This document shows positions 15,926 through 22,914 of a stretch of DNA of 64,000 nt, in pieces. This DNA is from an uncultured Desulfobulbaceae bacterium (GTDB taxonomy: Bacteria; Desulfobacterota; Desulfobulbia; Desulfobulbales; Desulfobulbaceae), in assembly GCA_964626235.1 (NCBI GenBank), contig CAZVDY010000067.1, forward strand, positions 13,539 to 77,538, written 5' to 3'. A program made the translations under genes and the position numbers. The number at the start of each line of letters is the position of its first letter. The first letter of the stretch is position 1. The notes beneath the pieces were generated by a model. That model had not been told where the DNA came from. It saw nothing but the letters and a program-made list of their open reading frames with translations, and ran no database searches.

Positions 15926-18900
15926 TCAGGAAGTCAGCTCCTTTTTCAGGGTCTCTATCTCCTTCTTCAGAGCTGACCTGATCTCTGCGAATTCACTACG
16001 CATCAGCCTGAGCAGCCGATCTTCTTCAGCGTCAGGAGAAGCAGCCGCCTTCTGTTCCGGAACCGTTTTTTCCTCTGCAGGTCTGGCCGCTGGAGCGGGC
16101 TCCTGTTCTTCACTGCCGGGTGCACTGGTATTCTGGCGGAGGATATCAGCCAGCAGGTTCTGGTGCCAGGTGGTGAAACGCGTCACAGCCTCCACCAGGG
16201 TCTCTGATCCCTGTCCGGGATCCTTGAGACGCTGATAGAGATAGTCCATCAGCTCTTCGGTGCCTTCCCCTACGGCTGCATCGTAATCCCGGGGGATCGA
16301 GGTCACCACGGTATTCATCAGGGTCAGAAGCACCTTCTGGGTTGTATCCTCGATGTACTGCTGCTGGACCTGGATGATGTTGGTGGTCTGGTCGACGAAC
16401 TCCTCTCTCGGCGTGCTGCCGAATCCGGCAATGGCACTGCCCAGGGCCTGCAAATGTTCCTTCCGGGTAGACTGATCATCGGAATCAACTGGTTCTTCAG
16501 CCTCCAGGGCGGCAGCGGTTTCTGTCTCCATTTCCGCGGCCGCTGACTCCGCGCTTTCCGCCTCCTGGTCGGGAAAGAAGAAGTTGAGCTTCTCCTCCAG
16601 TTCCACTGTCGGAGTATCGTCATCCTCCTCGACCTCTCCACCCAGTTCCTCCTCCATGTCCACGTCAACGGCGTCGGCTGGCGTTTCGGTCCTGCCAGAC
16701 TCGGTCAACAATTCATCCTCGGGTTCAACGGCAGCCAGGGCCGGCTCGACAGTGTCGCTCTCGTCTTCTTCTTGCTCCTCGGCTGCCGGAGATTCAAGCT
16801 CACCGAAGTCCACATCAGGCAGGTCTGTTTCGGCGACAACAGGCTCAATCTCATCTTCTTCACTACTGCTGAGCAGGGAATCGAGCCGCTCCTCGATTCC
16901 ACCGATGGACTCCTCGGAAAGGGCCAGATCAAGCTCTTCCTCTTCCTCGTCAGCCGGTTCTCCGTCAACAGGTTCTTCAGCCACCTCTCCGGCTGCCTGG
17001 TCAAAAAGTGTATCCAGACTTTTTTCTATCTCCTCGATGGATTCTGCGTTTTCCATCTCTCCGGCCGGGGGAAGAACATCCTCGTCTGCCAGCGCCGGTA
17101 TCACGGCTCCATCCTGGAAAAAATCGTCCTCTGCCTCTTCTTCATCCGTCTTGTCAGGCTCTGCTCCCGTTTGAACTGGAGCCTCCACGTCCGTATCCGT
17201 GTCGGAGCCAAAGAAGCGATCCAGGCGCTCTTCCAGTTTTTTCGCAGCTTCGCTGTCAAAATTCAGATCCTGCTCCTCTGCAACATCCTCTGCCACATCG
17301 GAAAGGGCAGGGGTCACAGACTCGTCAAATGCAAGTTCTGATTGGGCAGTATCTCCCTCGGTGGAGATTGTTTTCGTCCCATCCTCATCTGCCTCCTCTA
17401 CAGAACTCTCGTCAAAAAAGGAATCCAGGTGCTGTGCCAGTTCATCGGCCGGTAGCCTGGCCTCGGTATCCACCTCTCTTTCTTCGTCCTCGTCCGGGGT
17501 AACAGAGGAAAGAGCCGGCATGATCTCTTCCGTGGTATCGTCCTCGTCACTGAAGACCGAATCCAACTGGAGATCGATATCCTCAACAACAGCCTCCCCA
17601 GGCTTCTTCTCCGTTGCCGCCTCTTCCAAATCATCGAGCGAAAGGGCAGAAGGAAGGTCTTCAAGCTGTTCCTCCACATCCCCATTCAGATCCAGGCCAA
17701 GCTCATCCGCATTCTTGTCATCCAACTCAAAGGTCTGGGTATCCAGGCTGGCGAAATCTTCTTCACTGTCATCAGAGAAGAGGAGATCGAGCTGTTCCTC
17801 GATATGCTCCTGGGGAGAGATATCGTCTCGCTCCTCGAGTTTTTCCGGAACATCCAGGCCACTGAGGGCTGCTGTCACCTCATCGCCACCCAATTCCTCG
17901 CCAAGAAAATCATCTGCCACCTCGTCTGCAATAGGCTGGATGGCCTCGGGATCAAGGAGATCATCAAATCCATCTTCTTCTGCTCGCTCTTCCTCCTCCT
18001 CCGAAACTTCTTCAAAGAATGCCATCAGGGTGTTGTCCAGGTCTTCGGTGAGTTCGTCTTCCTCTTCTTCCTCACTTTCCATGGAGGCAAACAGCGGCTC
18101 TTCCTCCTCTATGTCGGGGACCGCCTTGTCCCCGGGCTCCACATCCTCCAGGGCAACAGGCGTTGATTCTATTTTCCTGCCGACTTCTTCTGTCACGGCC
18201 GTTCCGCCGGCAGCGATGAGAGCCTTGAGATTGTTGAGCCGTTCCACTTGGCTGACGAGGATTTCCTGGCGTTCCTGGTCGCCCAGATTTTCGTCTTTGA
18301 GCAATCGTTCCAATCCTTTGTAGAAAGAATGAAGAAGAATGAAGGCCTCGGGATGGGCATCGGCCTTCTCGTCTGCAATGTAGTTGCCCAACACTCCGAG
18401 CCCCTGGAGAAGAACCAAGGCAGCCTTGTCGTCCTTGACCGATTCTGTCAGTTGGCCGACCTGTTCCCGGAACTTGTCCAGGCCGTTATCGGTAACCTCC
18501 CATTCCAGGCCGAGAATCGTGGCTTTCAACCGGGTGAGCGGTTCCTGGCCGCTCAACGAAAGTGCGTCCTTGTCCAGGTTGCCCATCTCTGGAGATTCAT
18601 TGGTGCCGGCTGCTTCCAGCTGGCTGATCTGATACTGGAGGATCTTGAATTTTCTCACGTCGGTCTTCAGTAGGATGCTGATCTCCTCCCCGTTCATATC
18701 CGGGGAAGAGACAATTTTTTCAAAATCGTAAAAAAAGGTCAGGAGAAGCTTGATGGCGTTGGGATGGGCGTAGGCACCTTCATCGCGCAGATAACGTCCG
18801 ATCTTGTCCAGGCCCTGGAGATACACCTGGGCGACCTTGTCACCTTCCCAGACCTGCTGCAGTTCCACGATCTCGTCCGCCAGCTCCTGCAGGATATCGT

Positions 18901-19105
18901 CGCTGATTTCCCAGTCAAGGGACAGGATGATGGATTTCAGTCGTGTCAGGGGCGACTCTTCCTCACCGGTGAACTCGAACAGGTCGATATCCACCGTATC
19001 GAACGATTCGTCTGCGAACAGGGTGAGATCTTCCACCTCGTCCAGGGAATTGACAGGGTCCTTCTGCGGAGTGCTTTTCATGGGCTGGTCGGTGTTGGAT
19101 ACCAC
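15926..19105 (-). CDS. 1059-aa hyper-acidic protein: two homologous N-terminal domains, about 575-aa D/E-rich repeat region, helical C-terminal domain and terminal coiled-coil-like tail
   Basis: Single long ORF starting 12 nt after the mglA stop. Clear internal domain duplication and repeated motifs. The plus-strand Ser-rich ORFs here are mirror images of GAx/GAG codons. Confidence 0.8.
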   Translation of the reverse strand: MVSNTDQPMKSTPQKDPVNSLDEVEDLTLFADESFDTVDIDLFEFTGEEESPLTRLKSIILSLDWEISDDILQELADEIVELQQVWEGDKVAQVYLQGLDKIGRYLRDEGAYAHPNAIKLLLTFFYDFEKIVSSPDMNGEEISILLKTDVRKFKILQYQISQLEAAGTNESPEMGNLDKDALSLSGQEPLTRLKATILGLEWEVTDNGLDKFREQVGQLTESVKDDKAALVLLQGLGVLGNYIADEKADAHPEAFILLHSFYKGLERLLKDENLGDQERQEILVSQVERLNNLKALIAAGGTAVTEEVGRKIESTPVALEDVEPGDKAVPDIEEEEPLFASMESEEEEEDELTEDLDNTLMAFFEEVSEEEEERAEEDGFDDLLDPEAIQPIADEVADDFLGEELGGDEVTAALSGLDVPEKLEERDDISPQEHIEEQLDLLFSDDSEEDFASLDTQTFELDDKNADELGLDLNGDVEEQLEDLPSALSLDDLEEAATEKKPGEAVVEDIDLQLDSVFSDEDDTTEEIMPALSSVTPDEDEEREVDTEARLPADELAQHLDSFFDESSVEEADEDGTKTISTEGDTAQSELAFDESVTPALSDVAEDVAEEQDLNFDSEAAKKLEERLDRFFGSDTDTDVEAPVQTGAEPDKTDEEEAEDDFFQDGAVIPALADEDVLPPAGEMENAESIEEIEKSLDTLFDQAAGEVAEEPVDGEPADEEEEELDLALSEESIGGIEERLDSLLSSSEEDEIEPVVAETDLPDVDFGELESPAAEEQEEDESDTVEPALAAVEPEDELLTESGRTETPADAVDVDMEEELGGEVEEDDDTPTVELEEKLNFFFPDQEAESAESAAAEMETETAAALEAEEPVDSDDQSTRKEHLQALGSAIAGFGSTPREEFVDQTTNIIQVQQQYIEDTTQKVLLTLMNTVVTSIPRDYDAAVGEGTEELMDYLYQRLKDPGQGSETLVEAVTRFTTWHQNLLADILRQNTSAPGSEEQEPAPAARPAEEKTVPEQKAAASPDAEEDRLLRLMRSEFAEIRSALKKEIETLKKELTS

Positions 19106-19117
19106 AACTTCCGTCCT

Positions 19118-19723
19118 CTATAAAAGTTTCTTCTGTATGGATACAACCGTAAGGGAGATTATTTTTTTAAGTGTTTCTGCTACGTTATAGCCTGTCAGCG
19201 CACTTGCCTCATACGCGGGCACGCGCAATTTCGAATTGAGGTCCTTTTCCAGCACACTGGATGGCAGGATCGGGACGCCCTGGTTTCTGAGATCGACCTT
19301 GTTGTACTGCAGGACCAGGGGAATACGGAAGATCGATTCCTTGTATCCGAGCAAGTTTTCGTGCAACTGATTCAGGGAGCGGATATTTTTCTCCCGCATC
19401 GACTCCTGGGCATCAGCGACGAACACGATCCCGTCCACTCCCTTGAGCACGAGCTTCCTGGTGGCATTGTACTTGACCTGTCCAGGCACGGTATAGAGTT
19501 GGATCTTCAGTTCATAGCCCTTGATCTGGCCCATGTCGAAAGGCAGAAAATCGAAAAACAGGGTCCGGTCGCCATGGGTCTTCAGGCTGACCATTTCCGA
19601 TTGGATCTGCTTGCTGAATTTCCGGTTGATGTATTCGAGGTTTGTTGTCTTTCCGCCCCGACCAGGACCGTAATAGACAATCTTCACCTGAACGATTTTT
19701 TCGCGTAGATTGATGAAACTCAA
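19118..19723 (-). CDS. mglA: MglA-type Ras-like small GTPase
   Basis: Near-colinear with M. xanthus MglA as recalled: MSFIN, KIVYYGPGRGGKTTNL (P-loop), DRTLFFDFLP, LYTVPGQV (switch II Gln), LKGVDGIVFVADAQ, QYNKVDL (NKxD). Confidence 0.9.
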   Translation of the reverse strand: MSFINLREKIVQVKIVYYGPGRGGKTTNLEYINRKFSKQIQSEMVSLKTHGDRTLFFDFLPFDMGQIKGYELKIQLYTVPGQVKYNATRKLVLKGVDGIVFVADAQESMREKNIRSLNQLHENLLGYKESIFRIPLVLQYNKVDLRNQGVPILPSSVLEKDLNSKLRVPAYEASALTGYNVAETLKKIISLTVVSIQKKLL

Positions 19724-19789: not shown

Positions 19790-20191
19790 CTAGCTGGCTC
19801 TGGTCCAGAGCTTCCTGATTCTGTCGATAGCCTCGACCACGTTCAGCCTGAGAAAACCAAGAGAAATATCTTTGCCGAACATGGATATCAGGAGCAGTTC
19901 ATCGTCAATCTTGGAAAAATGAATATTGCAGTCTGTTCCCTTGTGAAAAAGAAGGGAGAACTCCTGCTCTCCAACGAGCTTTGCCATGGCATCGACAGTG
20001 GCAAAATTGCCCGCAGCCAGAGCAGCAAAGGAATAGACATCATATTTTGAACTTCCATTGTCCTTGGCCGTGATGATGTTGCCGGCCATGTCGATGATGA
20101 TTACACAGTCGACTCCGATCTTGATCAACTTCTCGTTTAAAATTTCATCAATTTTTTCAAGTTGTTCCTGACTAACAACTCCATAGTTCAT
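19790..20191 (-). CDS. mglB: MglB-type Roadblock/LC7 GTPase-activating protein
   Basis: IIIDMAGNIITA, FAALAAGNFATVDAMAKLVGEQEFSLLFHKG and ISLGFLRLNVVEA parallel M. xanthus MglB as recalled. Start taken at MNYGVV; the track ORF opens at 20224. Confidence 0.85.
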   Translation of the reverse strand: MNYGVVSQEQLEKIDEILNEKLIKIGVDCVIIIDMAGNIITAKDNGSSKYDVYSFAALAAGNFATVDAMAKLVGEQEFSLLFHKGTDCNIHFSKIDDELLLISMFGKDISLGFLRLNVVEAIDRIRKLWTRAS

Positions 20192-20280
20192 TTGGCTACC
20201 TCGCAAGCGTTGTCTGTCGGTCACCCGGTTGTTGTAAGACCAATAGGATACTTCTCCAATTATCTATGAGTATACGTCAG

Positions 20281-20451: not shown

Positions 20452-20739
20452 TCACTGTTGCCGGATCTTGTGCTTAAACCGTTCGTTGACAGCATAGACA
20501 AAGGCCAGCACCTCGGCTACAGCCTGGTACATCTCTGGTGGAATTTCGTCACCGACCTCTACCTTTGCCAATAACTCGAGGAGATCCGGATCTTCTCTGA
20601 CATGGACACCGGCAGCCCTGGCAGCCTCGATGATCTTTCTGGCAACCAGCCCCGAACCCTTGGCGACAACCTTGGGGACAGCGGCCCGGTTACCGTCATA
20701 GAGCAGGGCGACAGCCTGTTCCCGTTTCCCCGCGCTCAT
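20452..20739 (-). CDS. stand-alone FlhB/YscU C-terminal (CC subdomain)-like protein
   Basis: AVALLYDGNRAAVPKVVAKGSGLVARKIIEAARAAGVHVREDPDLLELL...IPPEMYQAVAEVLAFV matches the segment that follows NPTH autocleavage in FlhB. No TM region and no NPTH. Start uncertain: ATG 20739, while the track ORF opens at 20859. Confidence 0.75.
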   Translation of the reverse strand: MSAGKREQAVALLYDGNRAAVPKVVAKGSGLVARKIIEAARAAGVHVREDPDLLELLAKVEVGDEIPPEMYQAVAEVLAFVYAVNERFKHKIRQQ

Positions 20740-20842
20740 GGAAGGCTTCCCGGCTTGTTGAAACCGGAGTCCGGCCCTGCGGAACGATCCGCAAACAACG
20801 TGGTCTGCGACACTGGCAGTGCTGTAACAAAACAGTATTCCA

Positions 20843-22291
20843 TCATGCCGTGGTCTCAATCACACCGGATCCATGCCTGTGCAGGTTCTCCGACAGGACC
20901 CGCTCCGGCGGTTCGACACCGGTCAGGAACTGAACAGCCGTTCTGTTGCCCTGGGACAGCCCTGCCAAGAGCTCATCCCGGAAGCTGGCCAAAAACATGG
21001 CCCGTTCCCTGTCTGCGGTGTGGAAACAGATGGCAAGCCCATCAGCAGATTGCCTGATATCGATCTGCAGATCGCCCAACCCTTCCAGGGAAAGGTGCAG
21101 GCGGCACTCCTTTTTTCCGTCGTTGTCCGGCTGTTCATCGGCAGCGGACTGCCGGCGATCCATGACCAGGTATCCCTGGTCCAGAAAGGGGAGGGCCAGG
21201 GGATAGAAAACGACTCCCTGTTCGGCAAAACGGGCCTTCACTATTTGGAACAACTCGATGATCCGGAGGGCTTCCCCGGCCTGTTCACGGATCTCAGGAC
21301 TACCTGCATCCCGCTCCACTTCAGCCATGGCATGTTTCAAAGACTCTTCGGCCTGCCGGAGATCGCCTTGCAGCAGGGCATGTTCCTGCTGGAGACCCAA
21401 CCTGTGCAGATACCGTTGCAGGTCAGACCCACGAATAGAAGGAGAAGGGAAAGAGGGGGCCGGCCTGCTCAGCCGGTCGGTCAGCGCCCTGAAAAGCGTG
21501 TGCAGTCTATCCCGGACAAGAAGATTCTTTTCCGCACCGGCTCCAGGCATCCCTGGCTCCCTGTTCCTGTCAGTCAGCAGGGAGACCAGTTCCCTGGTCA
21601 ATTCCCCGACCTGGTCGTTCTGGGGCAACTGCCTGGCATATCGTCCGAGCCGTTCGGCCAGGGCATGGTCTGCTATTCCTGGGGAACCCGGCTTGTTCTG
21701 TTCAAGGAGCTGCTGAACATATTCCCTAAGCTCCTCCAGCAGGCCGCGGGCAGGCGACGCCTGTGGTCCGGAAACAGCTGCCCCGGGCCGCAGGCTACCG
21801 GGCAGGCGTCCCATGTCCTGGAGAAATAGCCGGACACTCCTGCTCAGATCAGGATGCTCTTCTGTGTGCTCTGCCAACTGCACGATGAGCTGCCCCAACC
21901 TGTTTTGCCTGGCCAGGAGCGGGAGAGAACGACTCAAGTGGAGCTGTCCGGAGGGCTGGACGATCTGCAGGGTAAGCTTGGGCCTGATGGCGGTGACCTG
22001 GAGATCCAGTTTCTGACCTGCATGAAAACGGAGCCTTGACTGAATGGTGAACTGTTCTTGTCCCAGGGTCAGGATCCATTGCCCTTGGCGGTTTTTGCCA
22101 CTGACAACAGCCTGCAGGAACTGTCCTGGAACAAGGCCAGGCTTGTTTCCCTGTGTGCCGGACAGACCGGTGAGGGTGAGCAGCTCGCCGATGCCGGCCA
22201 TCATCGGGGGGCGCGCCTGTCCGGCACCGGCAGGGATCAGTCGACCCGTATTTTTTCCCGGAGTTGCCGACGTTGCTCCTGCAGGCAGCAT
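20843..22291 (-). CDS. FliK-like (flagellar hook-length control C-terminal domain) protein
   Basis: C-terminal CRLHLSLEGLGDLQIDIRQSADGLAICFHTADRERAMFLASFRDELLAGL resembles the Flg_hook/FliK C-domain. An alternative start at 22204 (MMAGIGELL) would remove the 55-nt overlap with the PilZ gene. Confidence 0.55.
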   Translation of the reverse strand: MLPAGATSATPGKNTGRLIPAGAGQARPPMMAGIGELLTLTGLSGTQGNKPGLVPGQFLQAVVSGKNRQGQWILTLGQEQFTIQSRLRFHAGQKLDLQVTAIRPKLTLQIVQPSGQLHLSRSLPLLARQNRLGQLIVQLAEHTEEHPDLSRSVRLFLQDMGRLPGSLRPGAAVSGPQASPARGLLEELREYVQQLLEQNKPGSPGIADHALAERLGRYARQLPQNDQVGELTRELVSLLTDRNREPGMPGAGAEKNLLVRDRLHTLFRALTDRLSRPAPSFPSPSIRGSDLQRYLHRLGLQQEHALLQGDLRQAEESLKHAMAEVERDAGSPEIREQAGEALRIIELFQIVKARFAEQGVVFYPLALPFLDQGYLVMDRRQSAADEQPDNDGKKECRLHLSLEGLGDLQIDIRQSADGLAICFHTADRERAMFLASFRDELLAGLSQGNRTAVQFLTGVEPPERVLSENLHRHGSGVIETTA

Positions 22292-22914
22292 GAAATTATC
22301 TGATCCCGTACTTTTTGCTCGATACTATCAAAATGAAAGGCGATCTGATAGCGGTTTTTCCGCATTCGATAGACCCGGACAACATGCCCCATGCATTCTA
22401 TGGGCTGTTTTTGCTCCGGGAGTTGCAGCATCAACTGAATGCGACTCTTGTTTTCCGGTGGCTGACTGAACAGCGCCAGTACGCCGCTGCCGCTGAGATC
22501 AACGGTTTCACCGGTCAGCTCCCAGGCCTTTTTGCGGATCTCTTTGGGACCTGGTTGGTAGCGGGCAACAATGGGTAGCTGGACATTCACCCGGAAATAC
22601 TCCCGTAAGGATTCCGGCCTGATCGACTCCTGAGCAGTCAGGAGGAGGCTCCGCTCGTCCACCAATCCGTCCACAGTGGCCAGCAAGGTAATGCCGGAAT
22701 CGTTTTCCTGCTTCACGGTCAGCATACAGTTCGTGCCCTGGTCAAGGGCAAGGTCTTCCAGGTTGTTGCTGGGAAAGACCAGGGTGAACTGAGGAGCCTT
22801 GTTCTTCTTCAGGACGCTCTTCAGTCGGCGCCGCTCATCCGTGCCGACCGGAATATCGATCAGGACGATTGAGTTGTCGCGGAGTCTGTTCAGTGTGTCC
22901 TCTATACCAGCCAC
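22237..22914 (-). CDS. PilZ-domain c-di-GMP receptor (YcgR-like architecture)
   Basis: RxxxR (REYFR) followed by D-x-S-x-x-G (DLSGSG) about 30 residues later, with an N-terminal PilZN-like beta domain. Confidence 0.75.
   Translation of the reverse strand: MAGIEDTLNRLRDNSIVLIDIPVGTDERRRLKSVLKKNKAPQFTLVFPSNNLEDLALDQGTNCMLTVKQENDSGITLLATVDGLVDERSLLLTAQESIRPESLREYFRVNVQLPIVARYQPGPKEIRKKAWELTGETVDLSGSGVLALFSQPPENKSRIQLMLQLPEQKQPIECMGHVVRVYRMRKNRYQIAFHFDSIEQKVRDQIISCCLQEQRRQLREKIRVD

Follow-up and report, generated by a model that had tools for sequence, protein, structure and literature searches.

The subject of this analysis is a gene for a large acidic protein that lies directly downstream of mglB and mglA in a contig of an uncultured Desulfobulbaceae bacterium (GenBank assembly GCA_964626235.1, contig CAZVDY010000067.1, positions 13,539 to 77,538 of the forward strand; this stretch of 64,000 nucleotides is called the window below). 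The central part of the protein carries an array of short motifs that is real and under selection, and that is very probably a multivalent docking array, conserved, helix-forming and linked to the MglA/MglB module. From the resemblance of the motif to the C-terminal helix of Myxococcus xanthus MglB, we tentatively propose that the role of the MglB tail may have moved to the acidic protein and been multiplied there, which would make the protein a multivalent docking scaffold for MglA.

According to the list of open reading frames (ORFs) and their translations, the gene occupies positions 15926..19105 on the minus strand and codes for 1059 amino acids (aa) with the GTG at 19105 taken as start codon; translation may in fact begin at the ATG of residue 9, the orthologue consensus opening with MK. 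The protein contains 307 Asp and Glu residues against 69 Lys and Arg, and residues 331-870 are 38% acidic. An earlier note, made from the sequence of the window, had described in this region about nine short acidic-amphipathic motifs spaced 45 to 100 residues apart, and had regarded them as a multivalent short-linear-motif array, not as random acidic filler. All nine strings quoted there were found at the residues given for them in the minus-strand ORF, and map to 16565-18043, within the interval 16556-18052 assigned to the array. Seven of the nine were confirmed as motif copies by a profile built from orthologues, the one at residue 355 proved to be degenerate, and the one at residue 477 was left without support. 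The distances between copies, as measured, range from 32 to 99 residues, slightly wider than had been estimated.

Composition-preserving shuffling, a control proposed in the earlier note, yielded essentially no motif copies. Residues 331-870 contain six matches to the pattern L-D-x-[FL]-F; 5000 such shuffles had 0.06 on average and at most 2. For a second count a profile hidden Markov model (HMM) was built from the motifs of the orthologues only; the protein of the window was left out, which avoids circularity. At a threshold of at least 3 bits this HMM recognized seven copies in the window protein (residues 435, 508, 552, 624, 691, 737 and 832; 4-11 bits), and when applied to 300 shuffles it found a mean of 0.02 copies, never more than one. 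No second carrier of the array was found when the other ORFs of this genome were searched, and in their 1.27 million residues the core pattern [IL]-D-x-[LF]-F-[GSA]-[DE] has only two occurrences. Single matches elsewhere in the genome (a radical S-adenosylmethionine-like ORF, a MotB-like protein and spurious ORFs) were judged to be due to chance.

The structure of the protein was predicted with AlphaFold2 in two runs, one with the full chain (93 sequences in the alignment) and one with residues 311-875 alone. In the full-chain model the N-terminal part folds into two tandem helical bundles (residues ~50-167 and ~187-309; 18179..18958, minus strand), predicted with a local distance difference test score (pLDDT) above 90, and the C-terminal part consists of another helical bundle (residues 876-994) and a long terminal helix (1024-1058; together 15932..16480, minus strand). 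Each N-terminal bundle bears the signature L-x-L-[DE]-W-E-[IV], and is named the DWE domain here. The central 540 residues are predicted to be a disordered, strongly acidic, degenerate tandem repeat with a unit of ~65 aa. In this low-confidence middle (pLDDT below 50 outside the motif helices) order is restored mainly by helices at the motif sites, namely at residues 352-367, 431-443, 553-565, 618-631, 686-705, 736-746 and 834-843, with pLDDT values of up to 84. The sole other short helices of the disordered middle, 394-406 and 409-414, fall within a separately conserved segment. The segment FDDLLDPEAIQPIADEVADDFLGEELG (residues 380-406, window 17888-17968), in which L384, A388, I389, P391, D398 and L405 are invariant, forms a conserved island of its own between the folded domains and the repeat array.

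When residues 311-875 were modelled alone, the same helices appeared at similar confidence (pLDDT 60-83). Since the helices persist without the folded domains, their helix propensity is intrinsic, and the similar confidence values do not consistently point to docking on the folded parts of the same protein. Their consensus reads P-x-x-[ED]-[IL]-[ED]-[DE]-K-L-D-[SA]-F-F-G-[DE]; a hydrophobic face made up of positions -4, 0, +3 and +4, with proline capping the N-end and glycine the C-end, fits a capped amphipathic helix.

The seven copies recognized by the HMM, all read from the minus strand, differ in how closely the orthologues share them. The first in the array, IEEQLDLLFSDD (residues 435-446, 17768..17803), is of the Q-L-D-[FL]-L-F type; it scored 10.0 bits, is predicted as a helix at 431-443 (pLDDT 75-81), and its L439 and F443 are at least 98% conserved. 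The copy EDIDLQLDSVFSDE (residues 508-521, 17543..17584; 4.5 bits) occupies a partly conserved position with 41% gaps in the orthologue alignment, and forms a short helix (510-515) in the model of the disordered region only, not in the full-chain model. It is followed by PADELAQHLDSFFDES (residues 552-567 including the N-capping proline, 17405..17452; 7.8 bits; helix 553-565), whose core is 83-87% conserved, and by KKLEERLDRFFGSD (residues 622-635, 17201..17242; 7.0 bits; helix 618-631, pLDDT 77-83), in which L, D, F and F are each conserved in 90-96%. The next copy, IEEIEKSLDTLFDQ (residues 690-703, 16997..17038; 6.1 bits; helix 686-705, pLDDT 64-84), is an extra repeat copy that lies in a lineage-specific insertion, with 95% gaps in the orthologues. 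In IEERLDSLLSS (residues 737-747, 16865..16897; 4.3 bits; helix 736-746) the window protein has an L-L pair against F-F in the orthologues; L and D are 86-90% conserved here, and the hydrophobic class at least 90%. The last copy before the C-terminal domain is PTVELEEKLNFFFP (residues 832-845, 16571..16612; 11.0 bits; helix 834-843), with L840 conserved in 95%. Two further sites complete the list. The degenerate copy DLDNTLMAFFEE (residues 355-366, 18008..18043) remained below the HMM threshold; it is helical in both models (352-367), and the orthologues show L-x-A-E-L-D-x-L-F close to this site. The doubtful copy VEEQLEDLPSAL (residues 477-488, 17642..17677; -2.7 bits) was not counted because it has neither an aromatic residue nor a predicted helix, and the orthologues do not conserve it.

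Conservation in orthologues was the other check proposed in the earlier note. A search with the folded N-terminal part as query found 435 homologues of ~600-1100 aa, of which those with names were labelled Desulfobulbaceae, Desulfobulbus or Thermodesulfobacteriota. Among the 120 homologues listed, 119 contain three to seven copies of the motif, usually 59-72 residues apart. The motif logo reads L(-12)...P(-8)..[ED][IL][ED][DE]-K-L-D-[SA]-F-F-G-[DE]-D, in which D is found in 90% of cases, the first of the two F in 73% (replaced by L in 24%) and the second in 95%; the L at position 0 was fixed by the search pattern. The motif was also present in every full-length orthologue among 80 genome loci, including those of Desulfobulbus species, Desulfogranum marinum and the cable bacteria Candidatus (Ca.) Electrothrix and Ca. 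Electronema, with copy numbers from 2 to at least 16. In the cable bacteria the variant L-D-S-F-F-[ND]-F is found, and the orthologues are far longer (1300-1950 aa; 1957 aa in locus L120 of genome G007). The protein of Ca. Electronema halotolerans (L090) contains ten identical units E-D-E-G-L-D-D-F-F-S-M and one A-D-E-G variant, which suggests a recent expansion of the array.

In the 93-sequence orthologue alignment each of the copies at 435, 556, 622, 737 and 836 is found at the same position in at least 87% of the sequences; the motif cores have a mean identity of 0.30, the remainder of the acidic region one of 0.17. The orthologues thus preserve the motif in sequence and, in the case of five copies, also in location, whereas the spacers drift apart. 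Taken together, orthologue conservation, the shuffles and the AlphaFold2 helices bear out the view that this is a multivalent short-linear-motif array and not acidic filler.

A feature that the earlier note had missed is that the array is part of a larger, degenerate acidic repeat of ~65 aa, which became apparent when 225 repeat units were aligned. Each unit contains, in this order, the islands [VI]-[AV]-P-A-L-[AS]-D, E-x-G-G-F and [VA]-A-x-L-x-E-E-P, after which the next L-D-x-F-F follows; the E-G-G-F island was seen in relatives. The first of these islands is represented in the window protein by five [VI]-x-P-A-L-[AS]-x sites, where shuffles have 0.12 on average: SVTPALSDV (17294..17320, minus strand), in which A600 and L601 are at least 90% conserved, and the sites at 17855-17881, 17501-17527, 17081-17107 and 16727-16753, also on the minus strand. 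They precede the next L-D-x-F-F by 27-30 residues, the last one by 52. In an unbiased count of short words in 125 cluster representatives APAL was the most enriched 4-mer of the family, with PALA and LDSFF also among the top words. The word GVDVETEADDDSDE was found in many cluster representatives. No tandem repeats were detected at the DNA level in the array of the window; lacking DNA similarity, the repeats must be old, and the motif cores have been kept through a long divergence.

The linkage of the acidic gene to mglA and mglB is constant in the family. In the window mglB (a Roadblock protein by Pfam and NCBIfam; 19790..20224, minus strand) is followed by mglA (201 aa; 19118..19723, minus strand; Ras/Arf by Pfam, E = 6e-53 to M. 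xanthus MglA) and then by the acidic gene, which is separated by the TAG of mglA and 12 nucleotides. In 80 of 80 family loci mglA was found directly upstream of the acidic gene, and mglB precedes it in 76; the other four lie on short contigs that are cut before mglB. The same order of the three genes was seen in two further contigs (L031 and L033). Across the family loci MglA and MglB are ~90% identical to the window proteins; for the acidic protein's N-domain the figure is only 46-66%. At 19103-19123 mglA and the acidic gene share a reading frame, with the TAG and four codons between them, so that read-through of one stop would fuse MglA with the acidic protein.

The third gene can be followed beyond the family. 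In other families of the order mglB and mglA are followed by a shorter homologue with one N-domain, one or two motifs (R-L-D-D-F-F-G, T-L-E-D-F-F-G, R-L-D-E-F-F-D) and a P-A-L site. Where a genome of the order has no close form of the acidic protein, its mglBA pair is more distant, and the third gene there codes for a remote homologue, which shows the signature L-T-[IV]-D-W-E-V and starts with E-I-E-x-A-V-D-D-L-F-G. Remote homologues, which share the DWE domain, carry one to a few motifs of this class (for example RLDEFFSE, RLDDLFGE, AVDDLFG and AIDELFVK). This domain was recognized in 939 cluster representatives at E <=0.001 and in 50 of 301 sampled genomes of the phylum. Of 20 loci sampled across the phylum, from many families, 17 have mglA adjacent and 14 a recognizable DWE-domain ORF; in 12 of these 14 ORFs the motif class [ED]-x-x-[RKA]-[LIV]-D-x-[LF]-F is represented at least once.

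A counterpart of the motif exists in the same module in M. xanthus. The C-terminal helix of its MglB (residues 147-157 in PDB entry 6IZW; Baranwal et al. 2019, PMC6785124) binds an allosteric pocket of MglA that is made up of helix alpha5, strand beta2 and the beta2-beta3 loop and has L64 and I67 as its lining (PMC6785124). Of the MglB residues, D150-152 touch MglA, D154 pairs with K185 and F157 contacts K181 (PMC6785124). The helix tunes nucleotide exchange and polarity; its deletion lowered GTPase stimulation, abolished binding to MglA-GDP and rendered MglA, MglB and RomR bipolar (PMC6785124). In the deposited chains (6IZW_B, 6H5B_B and 6HJM_A) the tail reads ...S-P-F-A-E-[I/M]-S-D-D-D-I-D-N-L-F-S-E, and its I-D-N-L-F-S-E fits the motif core [IL]-D-x-[LF]-F-[GSA]-[DE]. 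Cores of the same pattern in the window protein are L-D-L-L-F-S-D, L-D-S-V-F-S-D, L-D-S-F-F-D-E and L-D-R-F-F-G-S; SIEEIEKSLDTLFDQA is one of its motif peptides. The contact residues D150-152, D154 and F157 coincide with the most conserved positions of the motif, which are acidic at -3 and -2, and have D at +1 (90-97%) and F at +4 (95-97%).

MglB of the window has no C-terminal helix: it aligns to residues 7-130 of the 160-residue M. xanthus chain (6H5B_B) and ends ~4 residues past the Roadblock fold. About 73 MglBs of the family and order stop right after this fold, as do most of those in the phylum sample. The MglB tail has thus been lost or was never present in Desulfobulbaceae, and apparently also across Desulfobacterota. 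The local MglA keeps the hydrophobic pocket residues M64 and I67 and the equivalent of K181, plus a neighbouring lysine, and its basic alpha5 (T-L-K-K-I-I-S) is invariant in the family.

Taking these observations together, the helices of the acidic protein may be copies of the docking element represented in M. xanthus by the C-terminal helix of MglB (D-D-D-I-D-N-L-F-S-E). In Desulfobacterota this element would be carried not by MglB but by the protein that the third gene of the mglB-mglA operon encodes, and in Desulfobulbaceae an acidic disordered repeat would have come to contain from 2 to more than 16 copies of it. Judged by its sequence, the array would be a docking element that is already known, here relocated and present many times over. 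One acidic protein could then capture several MglA molecules or MglA-MglB2 complexes, and might act as a multivalent scaffold and co-regulator that concentrates the switch at one cellular site. Among the candidate partners (MglA, MglB, the PilZ protein and the protein's own domains) the evidence points most to MglA. That MglA is the direct partner of the helices, bound at the pocket described above and with the scaffold as consequence, is a plausible but tentative proposal; a disordered 'MglA sponge', in which the copy number sets how many GTPase molecules are held per site, seems rather unlikely.

Several observations weigh against docking on MglA. The residue equivalent to K185, the partner of D154 in M. 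xanthus, is a serine in the local MglA. The likeness to the MglB tail spans 7-10 residues and is not significant database-wide: in a PDB search with the motif profile, up to E = 10, MglB was not among the matches, the only one being 'EELDFLFDEE' of LARP1 (E = 3.6), and a strict position matrix ranked the MglB tail only in the top 0.1% of 12-mers, partly because the matrix was derived from copies chosen for L at position 0. Genomes of the order without a close acidic protein have no compensating MglB with a tail; the third gene of these genomes carries the motif at its N-terminus. MglA docking also leaves the P-A-L-A-D and E-G-G-F islands unexplained. Finally, the motif always shares a polypeptide with the DWE domain, an equally natural receptor, Roadblock dimers might by analogy with RomR and MglC be an alternative receptor (PMC12719032), and a client hub of the HubP type is a further alternative (PMC12918733).

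If the receptor were the protein itself, the helices would bind the DWE or the C-terminal bundles within or between chains and, as a series of stickers with acidic spacers between them, would bring about self-assembly to a polar matrix or condensate, or autoinhibition, with MglA and MglB binding elsewhere, for instance at the DWE domain. The co-occurrence of motif and DWE domain in one polypeptide throughout the phylum agrees with such docking, as does the fact that helical bundles are typical receptors for amphipathic helices. A Foldseek search of the full-chain model against the PDB returned generic helical bundles only (best E 0.017), but among its weak, non-significant matches were the vinculin head with talin helices and the paxillin-binding bundle of GIT1 (E 0.3-0.5). 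The AlphaFold2 models are divided on this point: helix 691-700 has a pLDDT of 84 with the folded domains against 64 without them, but other helices are predicted equally well or better in their absence (75 against 81 for 431-440, 77 against 83 for 621-630). Net charge disfavours the packing of acidic helices on an acidic protein, and the match to the MglB tail and the absence of this tail from the local MglB would go unexplained. On balance we consider docking on the protein's own domains unlikely.

Roadblock dimers, either MglB or the second Roadblock pair at ~5.1-6.5 kb of the window, would as receptors of the helices turn the acidic protein into a RomR-like adaptor that recruits the GTPase-activating protein. 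For this speaks that RomR(371-420) uses a helix anchored by an aromatic residue to bind MglC with nanomolar affinity (PMC12719032), that RomR is laid out in a similar way (folded N-domain, long disordered region, acidic helix), and that MglB is as invariant as MglA in the family. However, no sequence similarity to the RomR helix was seen, no comparison aimed at it having been made, and what the motif matches is the tail of MglB itself, which is known to dock on MglA, not on a Roadblock dimer. This makes recruitment through Roadblock dimers rather improbable.

A general polar hub resembling HubP, FimV or PopZ would use the helices and the P-A-L island to recruit type IV pilus, PilZ, chemosensory and cell-division clients, MglA and MglB serving only to position it. 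HubP indeed has imperfect acidic repeats with short helices in an unstructured cytoplasmic region (PMC12918733), several orthologues are labelled 'pilus assembly protein FimV' by the Joint Genome Institute (JGI), a PilZ gene lies ~3 kb upstream in the window and in L033, and each repeat contains several distinct conserved islands. The acidic protein, however, has neither a LysM domain, a membrane span nor the C-terminal domain of FimV, FimV models gave no match even at E values of up to 10, and L031 lacks the PilZ neighbourhood, the only unvarying linkage being that to mglBA. Such a hub appears about as improbable as docking on Roadblock dimers. That the repeat has no specific partner at all, being a spacer, cation buffer or entropic bristle with islands left over from repeat history or helix propensity, would suit the extreme composition (38% D+E), the variation of repeat number by species and the near-identical copies that suggest recent expansion in some orthologues, but is most improbable in view of motif cores kept in window repeats that have no DNA similarity, of an L-D-x-F-F that is near-invariant from Desulfobulbus to cable bacteria while spacers are freely replaced, and of remote homologues that retain one copy of this motif class.

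Other readings of the motif peptides were also considered. A membrane-targeting helix was rejected as the helices are acidic. The beta-clamp motif QL[SD]LF is similar to the first copy only, which has no supporting context. Peptides of the FliM/CheZ type that bind CheY found no support here either.

Outside the array, the N-terminus of the acidic protein carries the acidic-aromatic peptide EDLTLFADESFDTVDIDLFEFTGEE (residues 25-49; 18959..19033, minus strand), with invariant columns within D26-F45. Across 93 orthologues 11 of its positions are invariant, and it includes D-[IV]-D-L-F. It takes the place that E-I-E-x-A-V-D-D-L-F-G has in the remote homologues, and may be the ancestral single copy of the L-D-x-F-F motif class. 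The acidic protein had no match in Pfam or NCBIfam even at E up to 10, and a sequence search of the PDB with its N-domain and C-domain matched nothing; the DWE domain is an undescribed family without a Pfam model or structural relative.

Among the shorter homologues of other families of the order three of six have a basic amphipathic C-terminal tail. These tails (GFLERLKKLFK, IMAKLKGIFGKK and WWARFRKRLGRD; loci L115, L116 and L117) resemble the membrane-targeting helix of MinD; the window protein, unlike them, ends in a long coiled-coil-like helix. A homologue of 1172 aa from another family of the order (L114, genome G040) has a different acidic repeat, L-[ED]-x-S-L-S-F-L-D-E-D, with five clear copies, one of them with N for the second S, and also repeats G-I-D-P-L-A-G-V-D-V-E...E-A-D-E. 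Upstream of mglB, positions 20452-22914 of the window contain a PilZ gene, a FliK-like gene and a stand-alone fragment of the FlhB C-terminus. The same trio, with an amidohydrolase gene in between, lies upstream in L033; it is not found in L031.

MglA and MglB form the best-studied GTPase switch of bacterial polarity, and what is known of its mechanism comes almost entirely from Myxococcus. The loci described above establish a conserved third gene of the mglB-mglA operon across Desulfobacterota; a literature search for its acidic form in Desulfobulbaceae or cable bacteria found no paper. The motif of this gene matches the sole element of MglB known to act allosterically on MglA, an element that the local MglBs do not have. 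From single-copy remote homologues to at least 16 copies in cable bacteria, the family offers a natural valency series. If the proposed docking on MglA is true, it would represent a valency-based way of building or tuning bacterial cell polarity, with the copy number highest in gliding cable bacteria. As a bacterial case of a conserved multivalent motif array in an acidic disordered region, the protein also bears on acidic repeats of the HubP type.

Among eukaryotic proteins the LD motifs of paxillin are acidic amphipathic helices of the L-D-x-L-L type on disordered linkers, each able to dock on a folded partner. The acidic protein is alike in layout, by analogy only: there is no homology, and the host is bacterial. 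With HubP and FimV, which are hubs for motility-related clients, it shares a large, acidic and mostly unstructured repeat region (PMC12918733), and the imperfect acidic repeats of HubP in Vibrio and Shewanella likewise vary in number between close species (PMC12918733). The repeats themselves are unrelated in sequence, and the fixed partnership here is with mglBA. The FimV models TIGR03504 and TIGR03505 had no match at E up to 10 in the acidic protein and four orthologues, three of them named FimV by JGI; no LysM domain was found by Pfam or NCBIfam, and no hydrophobic membrane span is evident in the translation. As it lacks the LysM domain, the membrane span and the tetratricopeptide repeat domain of FimV, the acidic protein is not a member of the FimV/HubP group.

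The closest parallels are within the Myxococcus module. The C-terminal helix of M. xanthus MglB is likewise an acidic amphipathic helix that follows a disordered linker, its core is preceded by an acidic run and a proline, and it belongs to the MglA/MglB module; it differs in that there one copy is present on MglB, whereas here a separate protein has 7-8 copies (2 to more than 16 in relatives), and in that its binding to MglA has been demonstrated, whereas that of the helices here is proposed. RomR resembles the acidic protein in having a folded N-terminal domain, a long disordered region and an acidic helix that docks on a partner of the polarity module (PMC12719032), but it combines a receiver domain with one C-terminal helix, in contrast to the DWE bundles and repeated motif array described here. 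No receiver domain was found in the acidic protein by Pfam, nor was homology to RomR detected by Pfam or NCBIfam. Lacking a receiver domain, and with two all-helical bundles at its N-terminus, the acidic protein is not RomR. The Glu-rich helix of RomR has been likened to the C-terminal helix of MglB (PMC6785124), and in M. xanthus RomR docks with its acidic C-terminal helix in the basic cleft of the MglC dimer, MglC being a Roadblock protein (PMC12719032). Docking of an acidic helix thus has a precedent within the same module, which supports the proposal that the helices of the acidic protein dock on MglA.

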